The notes under the pieces are model-generated. The model had not been told where the DNA came from and searched no databases. It saw only the letters and a program-made list of their open reading frames with translations. The position numbers and the translations under genes were made by a program. 64,000 bases of DNA from Acidobacteriota bacterium (GTDB taxonomy: Bacteria; Acidobacteriota; UBA6911; RPQK01; JAJDTT01), in assembly GCA_965263035.1 (NCBI GenBank), contig OZ253580.1, positions 5,024,001 through 5,088,000 of the forward strand, in the 5' to 3' direction. Numbering within the stretch: position 1 is the first letter of the stretch; every line of letters starts with the position of its first letter. Below, one piece after another: positions 27,018 through 37,700 of the stretch.

Positions 27018-30000
27018 ATGAGCCTTCCAGACATCAATTTCGAGAAAATTCGTCCGTTTGACGGAAGCCGTCACGCAGGGTTCGAGGAAATGTGTTGCCA
27101 ACTCGTCTATTTGGAACCAGCATCCTCGGGCAAAACTTTCCACAGGAAAGGCCACGGTGGCGACGCAGGCGTCGAATGCTACCGTCGGCGTGCAGACGGG
27201 ACGGAAGTGGGATGGCAGGCCAAATATCTCTTTCACTGGAATGACGGTCTCAAGGCGCAGCTCGACAATTCGATACGCACGGCATTGGATAAGCACCCGC
27301 ATCTCGTTGAGTACGTCGTCTGCCTTCCGTTCAATCTTTCCGATTCTCGAACCGGCAAGGGCAAGACCGCACGAACGAAGTGGGACACTTGGTGCACGAA
27401 ATGGGAGGAGTTCACCGCTACGCAGCAGCGTCACCTGACAATCACTTTGTGGGGCAAGAGCGAATTCAGCGCTCGGTTGGCTCGCGAAGACCCCGCCTAC
27501 TCCGGTCGACTTCTCTATTGGTTCGGGACCGAAGCTGTCACGTCAGCTTGGTTCAATGAGAAGTTTGGAACGGCAAGGGCGTCTCTGGGCAGCCGATACA
27601 CTCCCGAGACAAACGTCGAACTCCCAATTCGACAGGACTTTGTCGCCTTCGCCCGCCATCCTGAGCTTCAGCGGCAGATTGACGGGTGGCTATTCCGGGT
27701 CACCAAGAAAGGAAGCGATGCCGTAGATGCCATACGCAGGACGGGTTCGGAGGCAGCCGAAATCTATTCCGAGCCTCTGGCCGAGGCAATTCGTGCTCTG
27801 ACGTCTTTACTTGACGGGGATCCAATCGGTCCCGACCAACCCTATCCTGTAGACGATTGGACGTCCGAAGTATCAAGCTGTCTCAATCTTGCCAGAAAGG
27901 CCCTTCGCTGGTCCTACGACCTTCCGCCTTCCAAGCCCGGACGCATGGGGATCAGGCCCGAACAGCAAGCGCAACATACCCTTCATGAGCTGATGGAAGT
28001 ATTGCATGAAATCAAGAGGGCTCTCGCTTCGAACCGTTGGCGACTGACCAACGCGAAGGCGGTTCTGTTACAGGGCCCGGCCGGCATCGGTAAGTCCCAT
28101 TTGCTTGCCGACATCGTGGAGCACCATCTTCACGAAGGTGGTCCGGCGCTGCTCCTTCTTGGAGGTGAGTTTGTCGACAATGCGCTGTGGCCGCAGATTC
28201 GCGACCAACTCGATTGCCCACCAACGGAGCAGTTCAAGCACTTCCTCGGGAGTCTGGACGCAGCAGCGCAGGCCGTGGGCATGAGAGCAATTGTGTGCAT
28301 CGATGCTCTGAACGAACGCAACGGCATTGATGTCTGGCCGGATCGTCTCTTAGGCTTCCTCAATAGTATCGAGGCTTTCCCGCGAGTCGGCGTAATCGTG
28401 TCATGCCGCTCGACCTATGTTCGGTATGTGATCCCGGATGACCTGGATGAAGATCGGCTCTTCCTTGTTGTTCACGAAGGCTTTGCCGCGGATGGCGGAG
28501 AAGCTGCGAGGGTCTATCTCGACAAACGAGGAATGGTTCGACCTGGGGCACCTAATCTCGTTCCCGAGTTTGAAAATCCGCTTTTCTTGAAGACGTGCTG
28601 CGACTCCCTGCAAAAGGAGGGGAAAACCGAATTCCCTAAAGGTCTACGCGGCGCCACATCGATCTTCGAGTTTTATTACGAGGCAGTGACTCGATCGTTG
28701 AACCGGCGAATGAAGCTTGATCCTAATCTGGAGATCGTGCCGCAAGCAATCACAGGCTTTGCGCAATTGCTGGTGGGAGCCGGCGAGGGATATGCCCGGA
28801 AGCGCGATGCAGTTGATTTATTTGAATCAGTCCTCGCCTCGAGCGGAAGCCTTGAAAAGAGTCTGCTAGCCTGCATTTCTCAGTGCGCCGTGGAAAGGCG
28901 CTGTTTCTCAGTGGGTGCGAATCCCACCCGGCAACTGTCGCTCCAGCCGGTAGCAGTCGGAGCGGTTCATAGAGGCAACGATATGGACTGAAGCACTCCG
29001 ATGTCAAAGGGTCGCTTTAGGCGACTCAGCGAGTCCGCAGGCCGCAACATGTGAACGCTGAGCAGGCCTCGAAACGGGTAATGCGGAAGCCGACCCGCCT
29101 GAGAAACGCACGAAGGCTGCCAGCGGTCGGGAAGCGAGCGACGCAAGCACCGGCCGGCTCCGCCGGGGTAATGGCGGTGGCATGTGGACAAGAGGGAGAC
29201 AGCAGCAACACGGGAAGCCCCGCCGGTGGCGTGGCACGCGTCAACCGGGAACCCGTGAGGGCCAGCCTGGGCCGTCGGGGTGGCGGAGAGGCCCGTAGTA
29301 CTGGAGAAGCCGGGTAACGCCGGTGGAGGGAAGGGGCCTTGGTTCGAGAACCGCGTTGGACGGGGAAAAGGACGTGAAGACTGGTGAGAACCTAGTAGCT
29401 TCAGAGAAAGTTCAGAGACTCCGGAAGACGCTCCATGCGAGCATCGAAGGAGGCTCCGGGCTTCCGGTTCTACTCGCTGTGCGACAAGGTGTGGCGGTTG
29501 GACGTGCTCCGTGTGGCCTGGCAGGAGGTCCGCCGCAACGGCGGGTCGGCCGGGGTGGACGGGGAGGCGATCGCCGACATCGAGTCGTCGGGGGTGGACG
29601 GGTGGCTCGGGGAACTGGCGCGGGACCTGAAGGAAGGGACCTACCGGCCCAACGCGGTGCGGCAGGTTCTGATCCCGAAGAAGCAACGCGGGAAGTTCCG
29701 GCCTTTGGGCATTCCGTGTGTGCGGGATCGGGTGGCGCAGACGGCGGCAATGTTGGTGTTGTCGCCGATCTTCGAAGCCGATCTGGCCCCGGAACAATAT
29801 GCCTATCGGCCGGGCCGGAGCGCGGGCGATGCCGTCAAGCACGTGCACCGACTGCTGAACCGGGGCCACCGCGAGGTGGTGGACGCCGACCTGACGGACT
29901 ACTTCGGCCAGATCCCCCATGCCCAACTGATCAAGTCCGTGGCCCGCCGCATCAGTGATGGGCGGGTGGTGGGTTGGATCAAGGCTTGGTTGGAGATGGC

Positions 30001-30087
30001 GGTGGAGGAAGAGGACGGCTGCGGCGGACGACGCCGAACGACCCGGGCGCGGCAAGAGAGGAAAGGGACCCCGCAAGGGGCGCCCAT

Positions 30088-31747
30088 TACGCCCCCAACG
30101 CAAAAGGCAACTTTGGGAAAAAGGGCTCGGCTGCGACGAATTCGGAGCCAGTTTGCCGGGCGAGGAACCGCCCGCTTCCGTCACCGGTATCGAATGGCGA
30201 ATCGTGATCTCCCCGTCGTCCACCAGGACTTCCTTCACCAGTGCGCGTAGCACCTTCTGCCGCTCCCTGACCCCCAGCGTCCCGGCGCCGGCCCGCAACC
30301 GTTCCCGGAAACTCTCCAGCGTCTCGGCGACCCGCAGGTGCCGCTCCCGTTCCTCGACGGCGCTCTCGACCGCTTCCAGTTCGGCCTCCACCGCCTGCGT
30401 CCGACTCCGTAGCGGCGGCATCCGCCGGCGCAACTCGTCCAGCCCGATCAATTCCTCCTGGTATGCCGTCACCAGCCGGGCGCCCGCTCGTTCCAACCGC
30501 TTCCGCTCCCCTCGCAGTTCCGCCACCCGCCGCTGTCGCGGATCCGTCCGGCGCCCCGCCTCCAGCCGACGCTCCAGCTCGGCCTCCAGTAGCGCCGGAT
30601 CTTCCAGCAACCTCACCAACTCGCCCCACACCACCGCGTCCAGCCGGTCCTGGCGCACCGGCCGGCTCGCGCAACGCGCGCCCCCCTCGTAGCGCCAGCC
30701 GTCCGTGCCCAGGCAGCGGTAGTAGTACAGCTTCCGCTTCGTCGTCCGCGTCGACGCCCGGTAGTACGCATATCCGCAGCGCCGGCACACCAACATGCCC
30801 TGCAGCAGCGTCGGCTCCTTCGTCCGTCGCGTTGAATGCCGCTTGTTCGCCTCCAACTGCTCGCGCGCCTGCTCGAACCGCTCCGCGCTCACCAGCGCCG
30901 GAACCGGGATCTCGATCCACTCCTCCCTCGGCCGCTCTTGCCCGGCCACCCGGCGGCTCGCGTATTTCCCCGGCCTCCGCAAGGGCCGCGTCACCCTCTG
31001 CCTCTCGCCGGTCCCGGTCTTGCCGTAACCGGCCCGCCCGGAGTAGGCCGGATTGCGCAGCATGGCCCAGATCACCGAGCGGTCCCAGCGTTGCTTGCCG
31101 GTCCGCGTCGGAATCCCCTGCTCCGTCAGCCGGCGCGCGATCTCCCCGATGCTGCAGGGATCCTGCGCATACCAGTCGAACACCTGCCGCACCACCTCCG
31201 CTTCCCGCGCCAAGACCTCGTAGCGCGCCTCCATTCCTTCGCTCCGCTTCACGTACCGGTACCCGTACGGCGCTCCCGAGAGCACGCTCGGCGAACCCTG
31301 GCGCGCCTTGTAGCGCTTGCCCCGCCGGCTGCGCTCCATGATTTGCGCCCGCTCGTACTCGGCGATCATGCCCTGCACCTGCACCAGCAGGCGCTGCTGG
31401 GGCGTCTCCGCCGCCGGCGTCTGCACGAACTCGCACGCCACCCCGCTCCGCTCGAACTCCTCCAGCAACAGCACCTGGTAGGCGTACTTGCGGCTGAGCC
31501 GGTCCGGCGACAGCACCAGCACCGCCTCGAGGCGCCCCTCCGCGGCCAGGTCGCGCACGGCCTCCAGGCCGGGCCGGTCCAGGCGCGCCCCGCTGAAGCC
31601 GTCGTCCTCGAACACCCACTCAGGCGGGACGACGTAACCGCGCTTGCAGGCGCGCTCTCGAAGGGCGGCCGTCTGGCTGGCGATCGTCCCGCTCTCCTTC
31701 TGGCGGTCCGAGGACACTCGGGCGTAGATGGCGGCGACTCTGGCCAT
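30088..31747 (-). CDS. large serine recombinase (resolvase + recombinase + zinc ribbon + coiled coil); no stop inside the element, frame continues to 28967
   Basis: YARVSS catalytic Ser, DDGFSGA, RPGLEA, SPDRLSR, MIAEYER, PYGY, LRNPAYSG, CRRCG...YYRC. Confidence 0.93.
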
Positions 31748-31889
31748 GGTTCAAGTCCTCCTCTCGCGCGAGCCGGACCGGCTGCTGCCGGACGGGGGCG
31801 AGTCGTTCGTAGGCGCCGGCCAGCCGGTCGGGCAGATGGCGGTCGAAGCGGTACTCGAAATGCACCGCCAACGGCCCATCCTCAGCCAT
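31620..31889 (-). CDS. small protein of the LSR element, overlapping the LSR start (candidate directionality factor)
   Basis: ATG overlaps the end of the upstream regulator; lies inside element boundaries; function inferred from position only. Confidence 0.45.
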   Translation of the reverse strand: MAEDGPLAVHFEYRFDRHLPDRLAGAYERLAPVRQQPVRLAREEDLNHGQSRRHLRPSVLGPPEGERDDRQPDGRPSRARLQARLRRPA

Positions 31890-32211
31890 GCGGCTCCCGG
31901 GAGGCGAGCCAAGCGCGCAGGGCCCGCGCCACCACTTCGCTGACGGCGGTGCCCGTCGCGGCCGAACGCTCCCGCAAGCGTCGGATCAGGCCGCGCGGCA
32001 ACCGTACGGAGAGCACTTGCTTGCCTTCGGAAACCGGAACCGGCTGCGTCAGCCGCTGGGCTTCGCGCAGGTAGCGATAGGCTTGGCGGGAGGAGAGCCC
32101 GAGCTGGGCGGAGAGCCGTTTGACGGCATGGGGCAGGTCGGGGGAGTCCTGCAGCAGAGAGCGGGCCAGATTGAGCCGCTCGGCCTTGCCGGCTTGGGTG
32201 ACACGCCCCAT
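31882..32211 (-). CDS. HTH + ribbon-helix-helix (CopG-like) DNA-binding protein of the LSR element
   Basis: LSAQLGLSSRQAYRYL HTH-like segment, then VLSVRLPRGLIRRLRERSAATGTAVSEVVARAL RHH pattern. Confidence 0.7.
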   Translation of the reverse strand: MGRVTQAGKAERLNLARSLLQDSPDLPHAVKRLSAQLGLSSRQAYRYLREAQRLTQPVPVSEGKQVLSVRLPRGLIRRLRERSAATGTAVSEVVARALRAWLASREPHG

Positions 32212-32220
32212 ATGACATAT

Positions 32221-32249
32221 AATATATACAGTACATGACTAGTAGTCAA
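32221..32249 (-). promoter_or_regulatory. sigma70 promoter of the LSR element with overlapping palindrome
   Basis: minus strand TTGACT-N17-TATATT, 9 nt before ATG 32211; TGACT-ACT-AGTCA palindrome overlaps -35. Confidence 0.7.
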
Positions 32250-33348
32250 CCCTTCCGACTGTACTTGCAGACGCGGTCAAACACGAAGTTACCTTTTGTG
32301 TTGGTGGAGTGCTCTCACCGCTGCTGAGCAACTTGTACATGCGACGCTTCATTCTGGGCTGGAAGGGACTGGGCTACGCTCGGCGCTTCAAGGCGGAAAT
32401 CGTCAACTACGCAGACGACTTTGTGGTCCTGGGCCAAGCTCCGGCCGCGATCATGCGGACGGCGGTCGAGGATCTGGTGAAGCGTCTGAAGCTGGCGTTG
32501 AACGCGGAGAAGACCCGAGAGGTGCGGGTGCCGGAGGAACCGCTGGAGTTCCTCGGCTACCGGATCGGGCGCAACTACCGCCGGGATACGGGGCGAGCCT
32601 ACATTGGGACGCGCCCGAGCCCGGCGAGCGTTCAGAGCCTCTGCCGCAGGGTGAGCGCGTTGACCGAGAGACGCTATGGACTCCTGGAACCCGAGCGAGT
32701 CGTGGGACGCCTCAACCGGCTTCTGAACGGTTGGGCGAACTACTTCTCGTTGGGTCAGGTGAGTCCCGCTTATGCGACGATCGATCGGCACGCGACCCGG
32801 CGGCTGCGCCAGTGGCTGAGCCGCAAGCACAAGGTGAGGGCCGGGAAGACGGTGCGCTTCCCGGACGAGCGACTCTGGAAGGAGTGGGAGCTCACTCGTC
32901 TTGGTCCGCGAACGGCCAGCTTTCCGTGGGCGCGCGTATGATCTCGTCCGAGAGCCGGATGCGTTAGTAGCGCACGTCCGGTTCGATGAGCGGGGAGAGG
33001 AAACGGGGTCACGGTGGAGATTGAGGCACCGGCATGAGGGCGAAAGCCGCCGGCAACAGCGACTCCCTTCGACCTACGGCCGTCGCGCCTCTCCTCGACT
33101 CTACTCAGTAGAACAATAAACGGAAGTTGAACCGTCGTCTGGGTGATTCTTTATCCATACGAGTTCAAGAGGCAGTTTTCGTGCTCGAACGTGCCGACCA
33201 ACGGCCAGATGCAGCGCTTCTCCAGAGCCTTTTGACGCCCATCCTGCGCTTCTGAGCGACGACTCTCGACCCGGTGCCCACTCCGGGGCGCAGTCCATCC
33301 TGGGGACTCCCAAGTCGCCATCGTCCAAAGAGTTCTTTCCATCCGTTG

Positions 33349-34761
33349 CTAACAGCGAAGCGGGAGGGCTTGCACTTGCGTCAGAGCCGTCCTCAACAGC
33401 GCCGCATACGGATAGCTCTCGGAAAAGGACAACCAGACCTTGCGGCTGGTGATTCGGACCTGTGCCCCGATCTTCAGCAATCTCACCCGCAGGGTCCAGC
33501 TCTGCGCCCGCGCCAGCTTCGTCCCCGCCAGTCCCACCCGTCGCAACGTCTCCATCATCACGTAGGCGAACGCCGAGAAATACAACCGCAGTTGATTCCC
33601 CGCCAGCTTCCGGGTCGACGTGCGGTCCGCAAACAGACCCAGCTGCTGTTCCTTTATCCGATTCTCCATGTCTCCCCGCGCGCAGTAGACCTCCTCGTAC
33701 AATCTGCGCCCATCGCATTCCTGGACCGGGACCGAAGTCACGATGAATCGCGGGTTCTTTCCCCGGGGCAGGTGCTCCACCTTCGCCACCACCCGACGCT
33801 CGCACGACCACGTGTCCCGCGTCTGGTAGCGTAGTTCCTGGAACTGCCTCACGGCCTTGCCCATCGCCTGCTGCAACTTCCGGACGGTCTCCATCCGGGT
33901 CGCGATCCTCCGCTTCAGCCGATCGTTCTGCGCCAACCCCAGGACGTAATCGATCCCTTCCTTCTCGCACCAGACCATCAACTCGTCGTTGGAGAAGGCA
34001 CTGTCCCCTCGAACCGTGATCCGGACCTGGGGCCACGCTTCACGCAGCCGCCTCACGATCGGTTCCAACTCCGCCACCACCCCGTGGGCCGCGCCTCGAT
34101 CCGCCGTGCGCAGCCGCGCACACAACAGATGTTCCCCACAGAAGACGTACAGCGGCAGGTAGCAGTAGCGTTTGTAATAGCCGTGGAAGAACCGTCCCTC
34201 CTGCTTCCCATGCAGCGGATCGTCCGTGGCGTCTACATCCAGGATCACCTCCTCCGGGGGCTCCGGATGCGCTTCCACAAACACCTCCAGCAGCAGCTCG
34301 TCCATCCCCGCCGGGTCGGCCACGATCTTCTTGTACGCGCCCTCCGGTCCCTCCAACGGAGTCCGCTCCAGTCGGTTCAGGGTGCTCTTGCCTGCCAGCG
34401 GCTTGCCTCGATCCGACTCCACGCGCCGGAACTCCCCCGTCAGATCATCTCGATCACACAACAGCGCCAAGAGCCGGTCCCGGCACAACTCGTCGTGGTC
34501 GTTGAGGTCCTCGTAGCCCAGGCACAGCCCCAGCACCCGCTGTTTGATCAACGCCTCCACCGGGTGTTCGACTCGATCCGAGTCTCGATAGTCGGTGAAG
34601 CATTCGCTCAGACGACCCAGAATCCGGGTCCGCTGCTCCACTTCGCGCAGGAGCACGCCACCGGCGTCGGAGGTGATCTCGCCGCCGTCGAACCGGCCCA
34701 CGACATCCCGTCCGTCCAGGCCCTGAAATCTGAGCTTTGTTCTGGTACACTCTGCGGTCAT
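33349..34761 (-). CDS. IS1380-family transposase
   Basis: FDGGEITSDAG, GYEDLNDH, LDVDATDDPLHGKQEG, RGDSAF, YCARGDMENRIKE. Confidence 0.95.
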   Translation of the reverse strand: MTAECTRTKLRFQGLDGRDVVGRFDGGEITSDAGGVLLREVEQRTRILGRLSECFTDYRDSDRVEHPVEALIKQRVLGLCLGYEDLNDHDELCRDRLLALLCDRDDLTGEFRRVESDRGKPLAGKSTLNRLERTPLEGPEGAYKKIVADPAGMDELLLEVFVEAHPEPPEEVILDVDATDDPLHGKQEGRFFHGYYKRYCYLPLYVFCGEHLLCARLRTADRGAAHGVVAELEPIVRRLREAWPQVRITVRGDSAFSNDELMVWCEKEGIDYVLGLAQNDRLKRRIATRMETVRKLQQAMGKAVRQFQELRYQTRDTWSCERRVVAKVEHLPRGKNPRFIVTSVPVQECDGRRLYEEVYCARGDMENRIKEQQLGLFADRTSTRKLAGNQLRLYFSAFAYVMMETLRRVGLAGTKLARAQSWTLRVRLLKIGAQVRITSRKVWLSFSESYPYAALLRTALTQVQALPLRC

Positions 34762-37700
34762 AAGGTCGCGTCCCTTCTGCTTTGTAAGTTATTGATTACA
34801 CAACACTTATAGCAGAATACGCGGCCTTTATCAATCTTTCTGTTGAGATATCCGGGCTAGCGCAGCTGGAAAGCGAAGGTCTTCTCACCGTCGAACCCTT
34901 GCGGCAGGATGACGGATCGCTTGCTGAAATGGTTCGCTTCACCTTCGAGCGTTTCAGCGATCATGCTATAGCCTCGCGTTTGCTCGATGACCACCTCAAT
35001 ACCAACGATGTGGCTAGTTCCTTTCGAGCCGGGCAGCCTCTCCATAATTGTGTTTTTGGGTCGAAAAATTATGAACGCGCCGGAATCATCGAAGCGGTGG
35101 CCATTCAACTCCCGGAACGGACCGGCGCTGAGATATTGGATGTTGGATCTGAGACTTCGTATACAGTGCAGGAAGCTTTTCTGGATAGCCTTCTCTGGCG
35201 TGAGCAGTCTCAATTCACAGATCGCACGTTCGAACTGGTTCGAGGCTTGATGCAGACGGACGAGTTGAACGACCTGCTAATCTCAATCACCACCGAGCCA
35301 TCCAACAAATTCAATGCGGTCTTCGTCCATGAGCGGCTCATGAAAATGACGATGCCGGAACGCGATGCACGTTGGTCGGTCTACTTGGCACTGCGTGGCT
35401 TCGACGGGCCTGTCGAGACATTGATTTCCTGGGCGCTTCACAATGATCTCAAGCACATGGACCAGGATCGTGCGTACCTGGCTGCGACAATGCTCACTTG
35501 GTTCCTCACCACGTCGCATCGAGAGGTCAGGGATAAGGGCACCAAGGCCCTTGCCAGCGTGTTGAGCCGGCGGCTTCCACTTGCGGCTCGTTTGCTGGGG
35601 GACTTCGTGAGTGTGAATGATCTCTACGTTCTTGAGCGTCTGTTGGCTGCTTGCTACGGTGCCGCTCTTCAAGGAAAGGGGGAAGCGGGGCTCGGAAAAC
35701 TCGCCCAAGTGGTTTTCGACACGATCTTTGCCAGCGGGAGACCACCGGCACACGCGCTTCTACGCGACCATGCCCAAGGCATTGTTGAGTACGCAGCGTG
35801 GTGCGGCGTACTGAATAACTCAATCGACCTTGCGCTTGCACGTCCGCCATTTCAAAGTCCCTGGCCTATCGAAACGGTACCGGACGAATTGATCGATAGT
35901 TATACCGAGGATCGTGGGCGCGGAGCCGTTGGTGACGCGATTGTCTTCTCCACCGTCCATGAGGGCGACTTTGCACGGTATGTAGTTGATCCGAAAGTAG
36001 GCAGGTGGAGCCCCGCAAAACTCGGGACAACGCCGGTTCCGACTTCGCTCGACATTTGCAGAATCTGGATGCAGGAATTTATTGCCAATGCAACTGAAGA
36101 CCAACGGGAGGCCTTTAACGCGTACGTTGTCGCTGCCGAGGGTGTCGAGGATTTACAGGGCCATCAGTCCAGTCCAGAGACGGAACGGTTGGCCTCCGCC
36201 GAGATTGCCCTTCAGCAAACGATGACGTCGGACCAATGGGAAGACTTTCGAGTTCGAGCAAAGGACTTCATCTGCCGGATATTCTCCACGGATCACTTCC
36301 AAAAACGGACCGCGCACTTCGACGTCCATTGGGGTCGTAGATGGATCTGCAAGCGAGCCCATGAACTCGGTTGGACATCGGAACGCTTTGGAGATTTCGA
36401 CAATCGTTCCCAAGGCTACGGCCGGAACGACCACAAGGTCGAACGCATCGGCAAGAAATACCAATGGCTCGCGCTCCACGAACTTATCGCCCGCATGGGA
36501 GACAATCTGGCTTCCTTAGGTAATCACTGGTCAGAAGAAAATGACGAATTGCCGCTATATCAAGGAGCCCGTGAGGTCGGATTACGCGATATCGATCCGT
36601 CCTTCTTGACCACTCAGACCCATTACGACGGCTGGGGCGAGTGGGGCAGAACGTGGTGGGTCCCTTTCAATCCTCAATTTCGCGCGATGGCTCCTCACGA
36701 GCGTTTTGCCTGGCTGCAAAGCGACCGCGATATCATCAACGACAGAGCTCTGATCGATTTACGTAATCCAAAGACAGGCCGCAGGTGGCTGGCCCTCTCT
36801 GGATCTTCGGGTTGGAAGGGTGGTGGCATACGGGATGGGAAGAAGGAGTTTCAGCGTGAGACGTGGTTTCGTCTCACCTGCATCGTTGTTCACCGCGAGG
36901 ATCAAACGAAGATGGTCGAGAGCCTCCGAGACAAGATTCTGACAAATCCTGGCTCATTTCCACAGATCGAACTTGATTCTCACCACTATTACCTTGGTGA
37001 ATATCATTGGCGCCCTGAGATTAGTGAGTTCGACCGCTGGAGTTCGCACGATGATTGGCAGGCTTTCGCCGTGCCAATACGCCCGACGGTCGCCTCCTAC
37101 GTGTGCGAGAGCGGGGGCTATGACCTCTCGATCGATCGGACGACTAGAGTAAAAATCCCTGTCCCCTGGCTGTCCAAGGAAATGGGGCTTCGGCTGTCGA
37201 GTGGGAGATCTTTGATTCTTGTCAACTCAGACGGGCGAGACACATTCTATGATCCGTCCGTTGTCGAATCTGGCCCCGCTGCGGCCCTTGTTGATTACGA
37301 CGACTTCCTTCAGGTTCTCAATCAGAAAGATCTTTCTGCAATCTGGGTGATCGCCGGTGAAAAGAGCGCCTACGGTGGGAGTACCGTAGGCTCAGGGTTT
37401 GGTGGCCGCTTGCATCACACTACGATCTATCGCCTTGACGGGGATGTCTTTACACCGTACCTCTACAAGGATCGGATACATCCGACCGAGCGTCAGCTTG
37501 AGATATTTTTCGGAGATGACCCCGTACCTCCTGGGATTGCTACTCGGACTGTGGTCTCGGAGACTTGACCCTCGGCGAAGCGGTCGTTGTTACAAAGAGA
37601 TCGTGAAGGTGCGGCATGCGAGTCTCATTCCGTCGGGTGAGGCGGTGAGCTTATCCCGCATTTTCCTCCACGCCGCTGAGCGTATGAGGACGAAGACCTT

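Follow-up and report, generated by a model that had tools for sequence, protein, structure and literature searches.

Minimal serine recombinase elements that very probably use the reverse transcriptase gene of group II introns as their landing site

Why would a mobile element settle inside the catalytic gene of another mobile element? A 64,000 nucleotide stretch of an Acidobacteriota genome (assembly GCA_965263035.1, contig OZ253580.1, positions 5,024,001 to 5,088,000) raises this question. We call the whole stretch the window and give all coordinates as positions within it. At 30088-32313 the window holds a 2226 bp mobile element that encodes a large serine recombinase (LSR). The element interrupts the reverse transcriptase (RT) gene of a group II intron, and it does so within the DNA that encodes RT motif 4, the enzyme's most conserved coding motif. 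Very probably, it represents a multi-phylum family of minimal (2.2-2.3 kb) LSR elements whose dedicated target site (attB) is the DNA for RT motif 4 of group II intron RTs.

The insertion can be read from the genome of the window itself. When the flanks and the element are searched against this genome with blastn, the intron turns up three more times without interruption (98.5-99.7% identical), each time with an intact RT, whereas the element is present once. All three sister introns show the empty site, ...GGGGCGCCC AT CTCACCG..., in which the two flanks lie 2 nt apart. In the filled site, the junction on the LSR side has the AT of the target (30086..30087, attL in the sense of the RT gene, identical to the empty-site dinucleotide). 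The junction on the other side, next to the gene for a ribbon-helix-helix (RHH) protein, has CT (32312..32313, attR in the RT sense), one base off the AT of the target. The insert measures 2226 bp without target duplication, because the three sister introns show the empty site and the two junctions have a single T in common. The insertion is precise and duplication-free.

The domains of the RT tell the same story. The N-terminal part of the gene (29435..30087, plus strand) ends in GTPQGAP and two bases of the next codon, and the C-terminal part (32314..32941, plus strand) continues with SPLLSNLYM, the rest of RVT_1 and the maturase domain. In a Pfam search, RVT_1 profile positions 1-124 stop at 30085, and positions 125-205 together with GIIM restart at 32312. 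Precise excision would give back the RT reading frame exactly, judged by the empty sites. A first-pass annotation, made from the window's sequence, had described an RT gene split at GTPQGAP/SPLL without target duplication; the two RVT_1 halves and the three empty sister sites bear this out. The 19-bp arms that it described are likewise in the sequence: the repeats at 30095-30113 and 32286-32304 are inverted, equal at 17 of 19 positions, and each lies 7 nt from its dinucleotide (AT at 30086-87, CT at 32312-13). It had further predicted that removal of the element would restore CCC ATC TCA CCG, and the real empty copies read CCC AT CTC.

Is the site in the window an accident? Relatives of the element were collected by scanning genome contigs with an alignment of 27 LSRs. 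The scan gave 588 stretches confirmed by tblastn, and the locus counts below come from the best 80. A regular expression located the LSR-side arm in 68 of the 80 loci (L014-L016 were mislocated and are excluded), and a second arm was found in 55 loci. Together with the window this makes 56 elements, with flanks that could be assessed in 53 and were too short in 3. The elements span 2195-2305 bp, and 25 of the 56 have 24-nt arms that are inverted repeats without a mismatch. LSR identity to relatives in the fetched genome loci ranges from 55 to 82%. Carriers among the best 80 belong to the Bryobacterales and other Acidobacteriota, to the Alpha-, Beta-, Gamma- and Deltaproteobacteria, to the Gemmatimonadota and to the Binataceae. 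Isolates are among the carriers as well: Nitrococcus mobilis Nb-231, Sinorhizobium psoraleae, Bradyrhizobium erythrophlei, Mesorhizobium tianshanense, Rhizobium sp. and Caballeronia catudaia.

The flanks of these elements come back to the same codons again and again. When the intact sister RT (427 aa) is used as a tblastn query, it matches 61 of the 80 loci, and the match typically breaks at residues 215-220, exactly at the element edges, on either strand. In 29 of the 53 loci GTPQGxx lies upstream and xSPLLxN downstream on the LSR strand, so that the element is co-oriented with the RT gene. The reverse arrangement, antisense to the RT gene, occurs in 14 loci including the window. Two more loci are RT-type by eye (L028 with Ala for Ser, L033 with a one-base indel). 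Taken together, 45 of 53 loci place the element between GTPQGxx and xSPLLxN, whichever way it points. Four loci (L034, L037, L068, L069) have the same RT half on both sides, SPLL/SPLL or PQG/PQG, as expected after recombination between two inverted copies has inverted the intervening DNA.

The group II identity of the target in the window rests on a ribozyme domain match as well as on RVT_1 and the GIIM maturase domain. Elsewhere in the family, group II ribozyme domains (D1-D4 and/or D5-D6) surround 13 of 15 loci at the Rfam gathering score (all except L003 and L019). They fall into six Rfam D1-D4 classes (1, 2, 3, 4, 6 and 7). Hence, many intron lineages are targets. The first-pass annotation had proposed that intron RT genes are the attB of a serine-integrase hyperparasite, and that the flanks of homologues be compared with the PQG codons of intron RTs. 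Homologues do sit at the same RT codons in many phyla, and 45 of 53 loci map there. The opposite outcome, homologues at unrelated sites with target duplications, is not what the survey returned. Misassembly had been another worry, and the junctions recur in more than 50 independent assemblies.

RT genes might also be struck for no other reason than that they are abundant and repeated, by a promiscuous ('multi-targeting') serine recombinase with a short degenerate target. The remaining four of the 53 loci (L032, L038, L041, L067) would fit such an enzyme, since their flanks are not typical of RT genes. So would a contig from public RNA libraries (X15) that places the window's element in flanks not obviously RT, and so would the variation in the core dinucleotide. 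Yet in 49 of the 53 loci the RT motif flanks the element on either side, and the insertion hits the same codon, to the base. The target consensus reaches at least 15 nt on each side, the six ribozyme classes have little DNA identity outside the motif, and group II RT genes make up a tiny fraction of a genome. We regard a promiscuous recombinase as very improbable. The non-RT flanks (the four loci and X15) keep a faint likeness to the site, for example ..FPQPSV and ..ITPILHN. They may be pseudo-sites or degenerate RT relics.

A dedicated RT target also leaves its mark on the recombinase proteins. The LSR gene of the window (30089..31747, minus strand) has 553 codons within the element and no stop codon of its own. 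Its open reading frame (ORF) crosses the left arm and runs on in antisense of the RT gene to 28967, which gives 926 aa in the integrated state; with the element ends joined we compute 575 aa. The C-terminal ...CLLRWGR of the LSR is encoded by the LSR-side arm. A protein search with the LSR yields at least 8000 matches, and tails were studied in the best 120. Nearly all of these are 59-100% identical, with lengths of 454-827 aa. Their C-termini share an arm-encoded ..YLLRSG(S/R) and then continue into DNA outside the element. The lengths vary because the ORFs run on into whatever flanks the element. By strict patterns, the tail is the antisense of P-Q-G in 46 of the 120 proteins and S-P-L-L in the +1 frame in 38. 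Another 29 have other tails, many of which resemble codon variants of the S-P-L-L class. The rest are too short to judge (4), read like the other arm (2) or have no arm motif (1).

Among plasmids (PLSDB, tblastn), the same pattern reaches LSRs that are about 50% identical. The carriers include pUSDA76 of Bradyrhizobium elkanii USDA 76, pRZP1 of Rhodococcus sp. ZPP and a Streptomyces plasmid. In these, a 'recombinase family protein' and an RHH/CopG or hypothetical protein lie, by PGAP annotation, between RT/maturase fragments named 'reverse transcriptase domain-containing' and 'group II intron maturase-specific domain-containing'.

What kind of recombinase is this? Pfam finds Resolvase (PF00239, 7e-32, residues 5-151), Recombinase (PF07508, 5e-23) and Zn_ribbon_recom (PF13408, 3e-11). 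In the 27-LSR alignment the catalytic motif YxRVSS..Q is invariant at Y8, R10, V11, S12, S13 and Q16, and so are Cys321, 324, 345 and 359. Against PHROGs the LSR matches integrase (8e-96). The closest solved structures are SPbeta SprA/YokA (4e-11) and the C-terminal domain of A118 integrase (4kis), which is matched by residues 285-517; the N-terminal domain of TnpX (2mhc) matches at 2.4e-7. A catalytic domain, a recombinase domain and a zinc ribbon with an inserted coiled coil assign the protein to the large serine recombinase (serine integrase) family.

The same domain order occurs in phage-type large serine integrases (Bxb1, phiC31, A118, SPbeta SprA). These perform a conservative attP x attB exchange at a central dinucleotide, as we propose here; insertion without duplication is common to both, and so is a small separate partner at the base of the coiled coil (a predicted one in our case). 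In contrast to phage integrases, the recombinase here belongs to no phage but to an element of 2.2 kb in total. Its target is a motif of a selfish intron family rather than a single host gene, the predicted attP is nearly palindromic with both orientations used, and the junction dinucleotides are variable and often one base apart. In addition, the gene lacks a stop, and its last residues are encoded by the att arm.

Elements that move by an LSR alone are known. TnpX (Tn4451/Tn4453) and TndX (Tn5397) are LSRs that act as sole transposase for elements of small or medium size, and they use an excised circle and sites that resemble the joined ends. Tn4451-type elements carry cargo, have loosely defined targets and show a GA dinucleotide at both ends and in the target. 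In our family AT is the most frequent core, and a specific coding motif of at least 30 bp serves as target. The cores we see are AT, GT, CT, GC, AC, AG and AA; GA occurs at one junction only (L063, with a flank too short for assessment) and never at both ends. IS607 is similar in size (about 2 kb), in having a serine recombinase transposase and in the lack of target duplication. Its TnpA is small, has an N-terminal DNA-binding domain and low target specificity, and usually comes with TnpB. We rule out the IS607 family: the catalytic domain is N-terminal here, the protein has at least 553 residues, and NF033518 scores 28.8 against a cut-off of 110. The ORF listing contains no TnpB-like ORF in the element.

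Inteins and homing endonucleases sit in polymerase motifs, and group II introns such as RmInt1 home into insertion sequences (IS). The strategy is the same: a target that is unable to drift, multi-copy and free for the host. They differ from our element in that serine recombination is used here and the victim is a retroelement's own catalytic gene.

LSR elements that precisely interrupt a coding sequence, and restore it on excision, are also known from skin (SpoIVCA), fdxN (XisF) and SCC (CcrA/B/C). These differ in being single-locus and in serving the host or carrying cargo. The named NCBIfam equivalogs XisF and CcrA/B/C score far below their cut-offs (111.6 against 375 for XisF, 85.6 against 900 for CcrB). 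Could the element nevertheless be a reversible genetic switch of the skin/fdxN kind, which restores the RT under certain conditions and thereby regulates intron mobility? The exact restoration of the frame on precise excision would suit a switch, as would a regulator and a candidate directionality factor encoded in the element; XisF is even the best NCBIfam match, though a sub-threshold one. But the family is multi-copy, patchy and spread across phyla and unrelated introns, which is the signature of a selfish element. The XisF score stays far short of its threshold, and an intron is not a host gene whose timing would matter. We consider a switch extremely unlikely.

If the element is selfish, how does it spread? 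Copies were compared within 12 genomes, and identity is confined between the arms in nearly all pairs. L039 and L040 of Nitrococcus mobilis are 100% identical over 2245 bp, L043 is 100% identical to each of L048, L049 and L057 over 2244-2245 bp, and L029, L030 and L032 are 99.9% identical. Most copies from the same genome occupy distinct introns or, within one intron family, face opposite ways (L010/L011). Since same-genome copies share the element only, it moves by its recombinase and not by retrohoming of a composite intron.

The first-pass annotation had suggested that the element could ride along with its intron, and this found no support: among the copies in the 12 genomes compared, no ride-along was seen. 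In its strongest form, this idea makes the element a passive cargo of intron domain IV that spreads mainly by composite-intron retrohoming, with a recombinase that is a relic or rarely active. The insert does lie in the RT ORF in domain IV and leaves the ribozyme core untouched, three intact sister RTs could act in trans, and L005, L006 and L007 share sequence past the element. However, 11 of the 12 genome groups have at least one pair that is identical or nearly so between the arms only, mostly in other introns or orientations. The remaining group (L001/L004) involves a rearranged or truncated copy and is uninformative. The genome of the window has one interrupted intron and three empty ones. 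Moreover, both orientations occur at the same site, whereas a retrohomed composite would keep one and carry the whole intron. Ride-along as the main mode was dropped, with homology that ends at the arms in nearly all pairs from 12 genomes, and passive cargo is hardly a credible account.

Movement by the recombinase also leaves traces in public data. In Logan contigs of four public runs, the window's element occurs elsewhere placed with 0-1 differences. One contig (X1) has it beside a different RT (…GTPQGGP, core CT). In another (X2) the LSR end meets the SPLL side of the same RT in reverse complement, that is, the element is inverted at the same site. The contig from RNA libraries mentioned above (X15) does not show transcription. 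The joint of the empty site, which skips 2226, is present in all four runs.

Movement of this kind would involve joined ends. A scan for an arm-core-arm pattern found 7 contigs in the metagenome collection, 0 in viral_contigs and none in the 80 genome loci. L084 contains an RT half, the whole element and then 98 nt that lead at 100% identity into the element start again, so that it is either a tandem or a circle. In L081, the first 23 nt belong to one arm and are followed by a core and the other arm. Among the LSR homologues, one of the proteins with an 'other arm' tail (P0019, 575 aa) has a tail homologous to the read-through predicted for the joined ends of the window's element. Joined-end forms appear to exist, and the evidence for free circles is modest.

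Two further contigs join different family members, head to tail in L086 (80% identical, L086:78-3094) and head to head in L085 (70% identical, L085:2-1213). Elements may also use each other's junctions or attP as targets. The last three contigs (L082, L083, L087) represent one locus, where two arms form a perfect 54-nt palindrome between an element and other DNA that exceeds 3 kb. This neighbour (L082:2639-5978, L083, L087) encodes frameshifted MmeI-like restriction-methylase domains (MmeI_N, MmeI_hel and MmeI_Mtase). Possibly it is a relative that carries cargo or is non-autonomous, with the same arm as its boundary.

Besides the LSR, the element encodes little else. The ORF listing for 28000-34500 has three minus-strand ORFs between 30088 and 32313: an RHH protein, a small ORF and the recombinase. 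They sit between two arms, each made of a 19-nt inverted repeat and a 7-nt inner segment: the LSR-side arm (30088..30113), with a consensus kept across 44 loci, and the RHH-side arm (32286..32311). A sigma-70-like promoter (TTGACT, 17 nt, TATATT; 32221..32249, minus strand) lies directly upstream of the RHH gene. The promoter scan of the element gave 2 sites against 0.1 expected from shuffles, and a scan of 29900-32500 gave no terminator-like site. The small ORF overlaps both of its neighbours, the RHH stop codon with its start and the LSR start with its end. The element thus reads as one predicted operon between near-identical 26-nt inverted arms: promoter, RHH protein, small ORF and a stop-less LSR gene.

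The small ORF (31620..31889, minus strand, 89 aa) is a candidate recombination directionality factor (RDF) or LSR partner. It has no family in Pfam, PHROGs or NCBIfam, and its conserved core, LEYxFDRLLxxKLxQVYxxLVP, is present in 49 of the 56 elements. When the full LSR is modelled in complex with residues 1-50 of the small ORF, the score is 0.70 in all three runs, against 0.01 for the best of 3 controls. At least 63% of contacts are common between runs, and the partner has a pLDDT of at least 64. Among the calibration sets, 58 out of 80 solved complexes scored this high, as did 2 out of 110 mismatched pairs. The predicted contacts fall on LSR residues 368-394, 475-505 and 512-522, the base of the coiled coil and the strand that follows it. 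This base is where known directionality factors bind or act, and by the model the small ORF probably binds there in the manner of such a factor. In 15 of 16 related loci inspected its frame, which differs from that of the LSR, remains open for 71-155 nt beyond the LSR start (31620-31747 in the window). The overlap is also open in loci that are AT-richer by eye.

The third protein (109 aa; 31882..32211, minus strand) has an RHH C-terminal half and is presumed to regulate the operon. Residues 67-103 match Pfam RHH_1 with 21.2 bits against a cut-off of 20.5, and PGAP names its homologues CopG family. Pfam, PHROGs and NCBIfam give weak RHH/CopG matches and no named family. A helix-turn-helix-RHH regulator had been suggested at first; the RHH part stands, whereas the N-terminal helix-turn-helix is confirmed by none of the libraries. 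Among 1.84 billion representatives, the profile of the protein finds 361 clusters (50% identity) at E<=1e-10. It occurs in 3 of 401 genomes sampled from the phylum of the window, a lower bound given that few candidates were scored by the first-look filter. Repression of the operon is its probable role.

How could such an element enter an RT gene in either orientation? The cores of 43 loci were cleanly classed by script. The dinucleotide is the same at both junctions in 26 of them (AT/AT in 16, GT/GT in 4, GC/GC in 3, CT/CT in 2 and AC/AC in 1) and differs by one base in 17. The window is among the mismatched loci, with the AT of the target beside GTPQGAP and CT on the other side. The dinucleotide corresponds to the first two bases of the Ile/Leu/Val/Ala codon after PQGxx. 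One element can have different cores within one genome (L031, L033 and L035; L043 and L053). In the half-site consensus (44 loci), a G three positions from the core and a GG at positions 5-6 are common to both attP arms and both halves of the RT site. This likeness stems from a natural quasi-palindrome in the coding sequence, in which the Gly-Gly-Val codons resemble the Ser-Pro codons read in reverse complement and which suits a dimeric recombinase. Serine integrases normally need matched cores, and a canonical LSR is not expected to ligate across a mismatch. The data suggest a strand exchange across the dinucleotide that tolerates one mismatch.

We propose the following mechanism. The element ends would join to a nearly palindromic attP, and an LSR dimer on attP would pair with a dimer on the RT site. 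Strands would be exchanged across the central 2 nt, the first two bases of an Ile/Leu/Val codon. A one-base mismatch in the core would be tolerated; after replication, every daughter would have the version of the target at one junction and that of the element at the other. The core of the element could then change with each move. AT and GC are their own reverse complements and thus impose no orientation, which would explain why both orientations are found. The small ORF, at the base of the LSR coiled coil, would permit excision.

A bolder reading goes further, and we lean slightly against it. It makes the elements obligate hyperparasites of group II introns across the bacterial domain, with a recombinase that exchanges across a non-matching core, a core rewritten by the last host site, a polarity that is lost, an arm symmetry that is kept by antiparallel exchanges, and a brake on intron spread. 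If this were true, the loss of polarity would let insertion, or inversion in place, go either way. Arm symmetry would be upheld by antiparallel exchanges even at positions that vary between elements. Destruction of the RT would be a natural brake on the spread of introns. The elements would also provide a recombinase and its partner, packed into about 2 kb and directed at a defined natural site of about 30 bp.

Several points weigh against a family of mobile elements that is dedicated to the RT site. Recombination is deduced, with no event observed directly. The first-pass annotation had treated a missing circle junction as evidence against its view: attP-type junctions are present in metagenome contigs, but none for the window's element was seen in the contigs of the four runs, which cannot show rare forms. 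Out of the 7 contigs, L084 and L081 alone join the ends of one element, and the second arm in L081 is limited to 23 nt; L085 and L086 (different members abutting) as well as L082, L083 and L087 (element and other DNA) are not one-element joints. In the survey, 12 loci were dropped when the regular expression missed the arm motif, although in L019, L022, L039 and L061 the RT halves still adjoin the LSR (tblastn). In ten loci no second arm was found, five with short contig flanks and five with full flanks and no match, and the four loci with flanks unlike RT count here as well. The position of the crossover comes from symmetry alone, and the 17 mismatched cores could stem from later mutation or another cut geometry. 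The complex model was built on our own alignments, and solved LSR-RDF complexes exist (e.g. SprA entries), so that its pass may owe to likeness. Finally, the overlap of the small ORF with the LSR start is indistinguishable from a chance open frame in GC-rich DNA.

The family is real, active, widespread and apparently undescribed. Its chemistry is of a known kind; what is new is the choice of target, the free orientation, the variable and often mismatched core and the stop-less recombinase gene. Of these, the two orientations, the core and the missing stop codon go beyond the first-pass annotation, as does the nesting described below. Mobile elements inside mobile elements are known, but our searches of the searchable full-text literature turned up neither a recombinase element directed at intron RT genes nor a recombinase family with its landing site in the catalytic motif of another selfish element. 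In a systematic LSR survey (PMC10083194) the main text has 0 occurrences of 'reverse transcriptase', and its supplementary target-gene tables could hold cases. The matching passages of PMC4853749 have no bearing on recombinase elements in intron RT genes.

What would the element gain from this site? Insertion destroys the intron RT, and the element gains a target without cost to the host that is multi-copy, often plasmid-borne and found in almost any bacterium. The RT motif is immutable, multi-copy, harmless to hit and present on plasmids in nearly every phylum; hence the reach of the family across Acidobacteriota, Proteobacteria and Actinomycetota. The family adds an antagonist to group II intron biology. 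It also gives a concrete reason for the many intron RTs that public databases annotate as 'split' or 'pseudogene' beside a 'recombinase family protein'. Mismatched cores and free orientation pose a testable challenge to the matching-dinucleotide rule of serine integrases. The small system, the predicted partner and the cultured carriers are open to direct testing.

The intron that carries the element is itself nested in other DNA. It spans 28883..33104 (plus strand), with approximate ends: GTGCG at the 5' end and, at the 3' end, the place where the four copies cease to agree. Its ribozyme matches Rfam group-II-D1D4-4 (RF02003) at 28909-29052 with 92 bits. Around the intron lies an IS of about 1.77 kb (28866-28882 and 33105-34860), with terminal inverted repeats that start with CTAGCC and a DDE_Tnp_1_4 transposase (33349-34761, minus strand). 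The genome has about 15 near-full-length copies of this IS, and the terminal inverted repeat of the window copy starts at 28866.

The IS in turn breaks an antiphage gene. PADLOC identifies 27018-28880 and 34899-37568 as two parts of one Avs2 (STAND) gene, whose halves cover profile positions 2-614 and 629-1499 of 1504. Outside the IS, the two ORFs occupy 27018-28865 and 34861-37568. As annotated, the window holds four levels of nesting: a recombinase element in a group II intron, in an IS, in an Avs2 gene. The intron sits 17 nt inside the left terminal repeat of the IS, and a sister intron lies at the matching place in the right repeat of another IS copy. The end of the IS appears to be the homing site of the intron.

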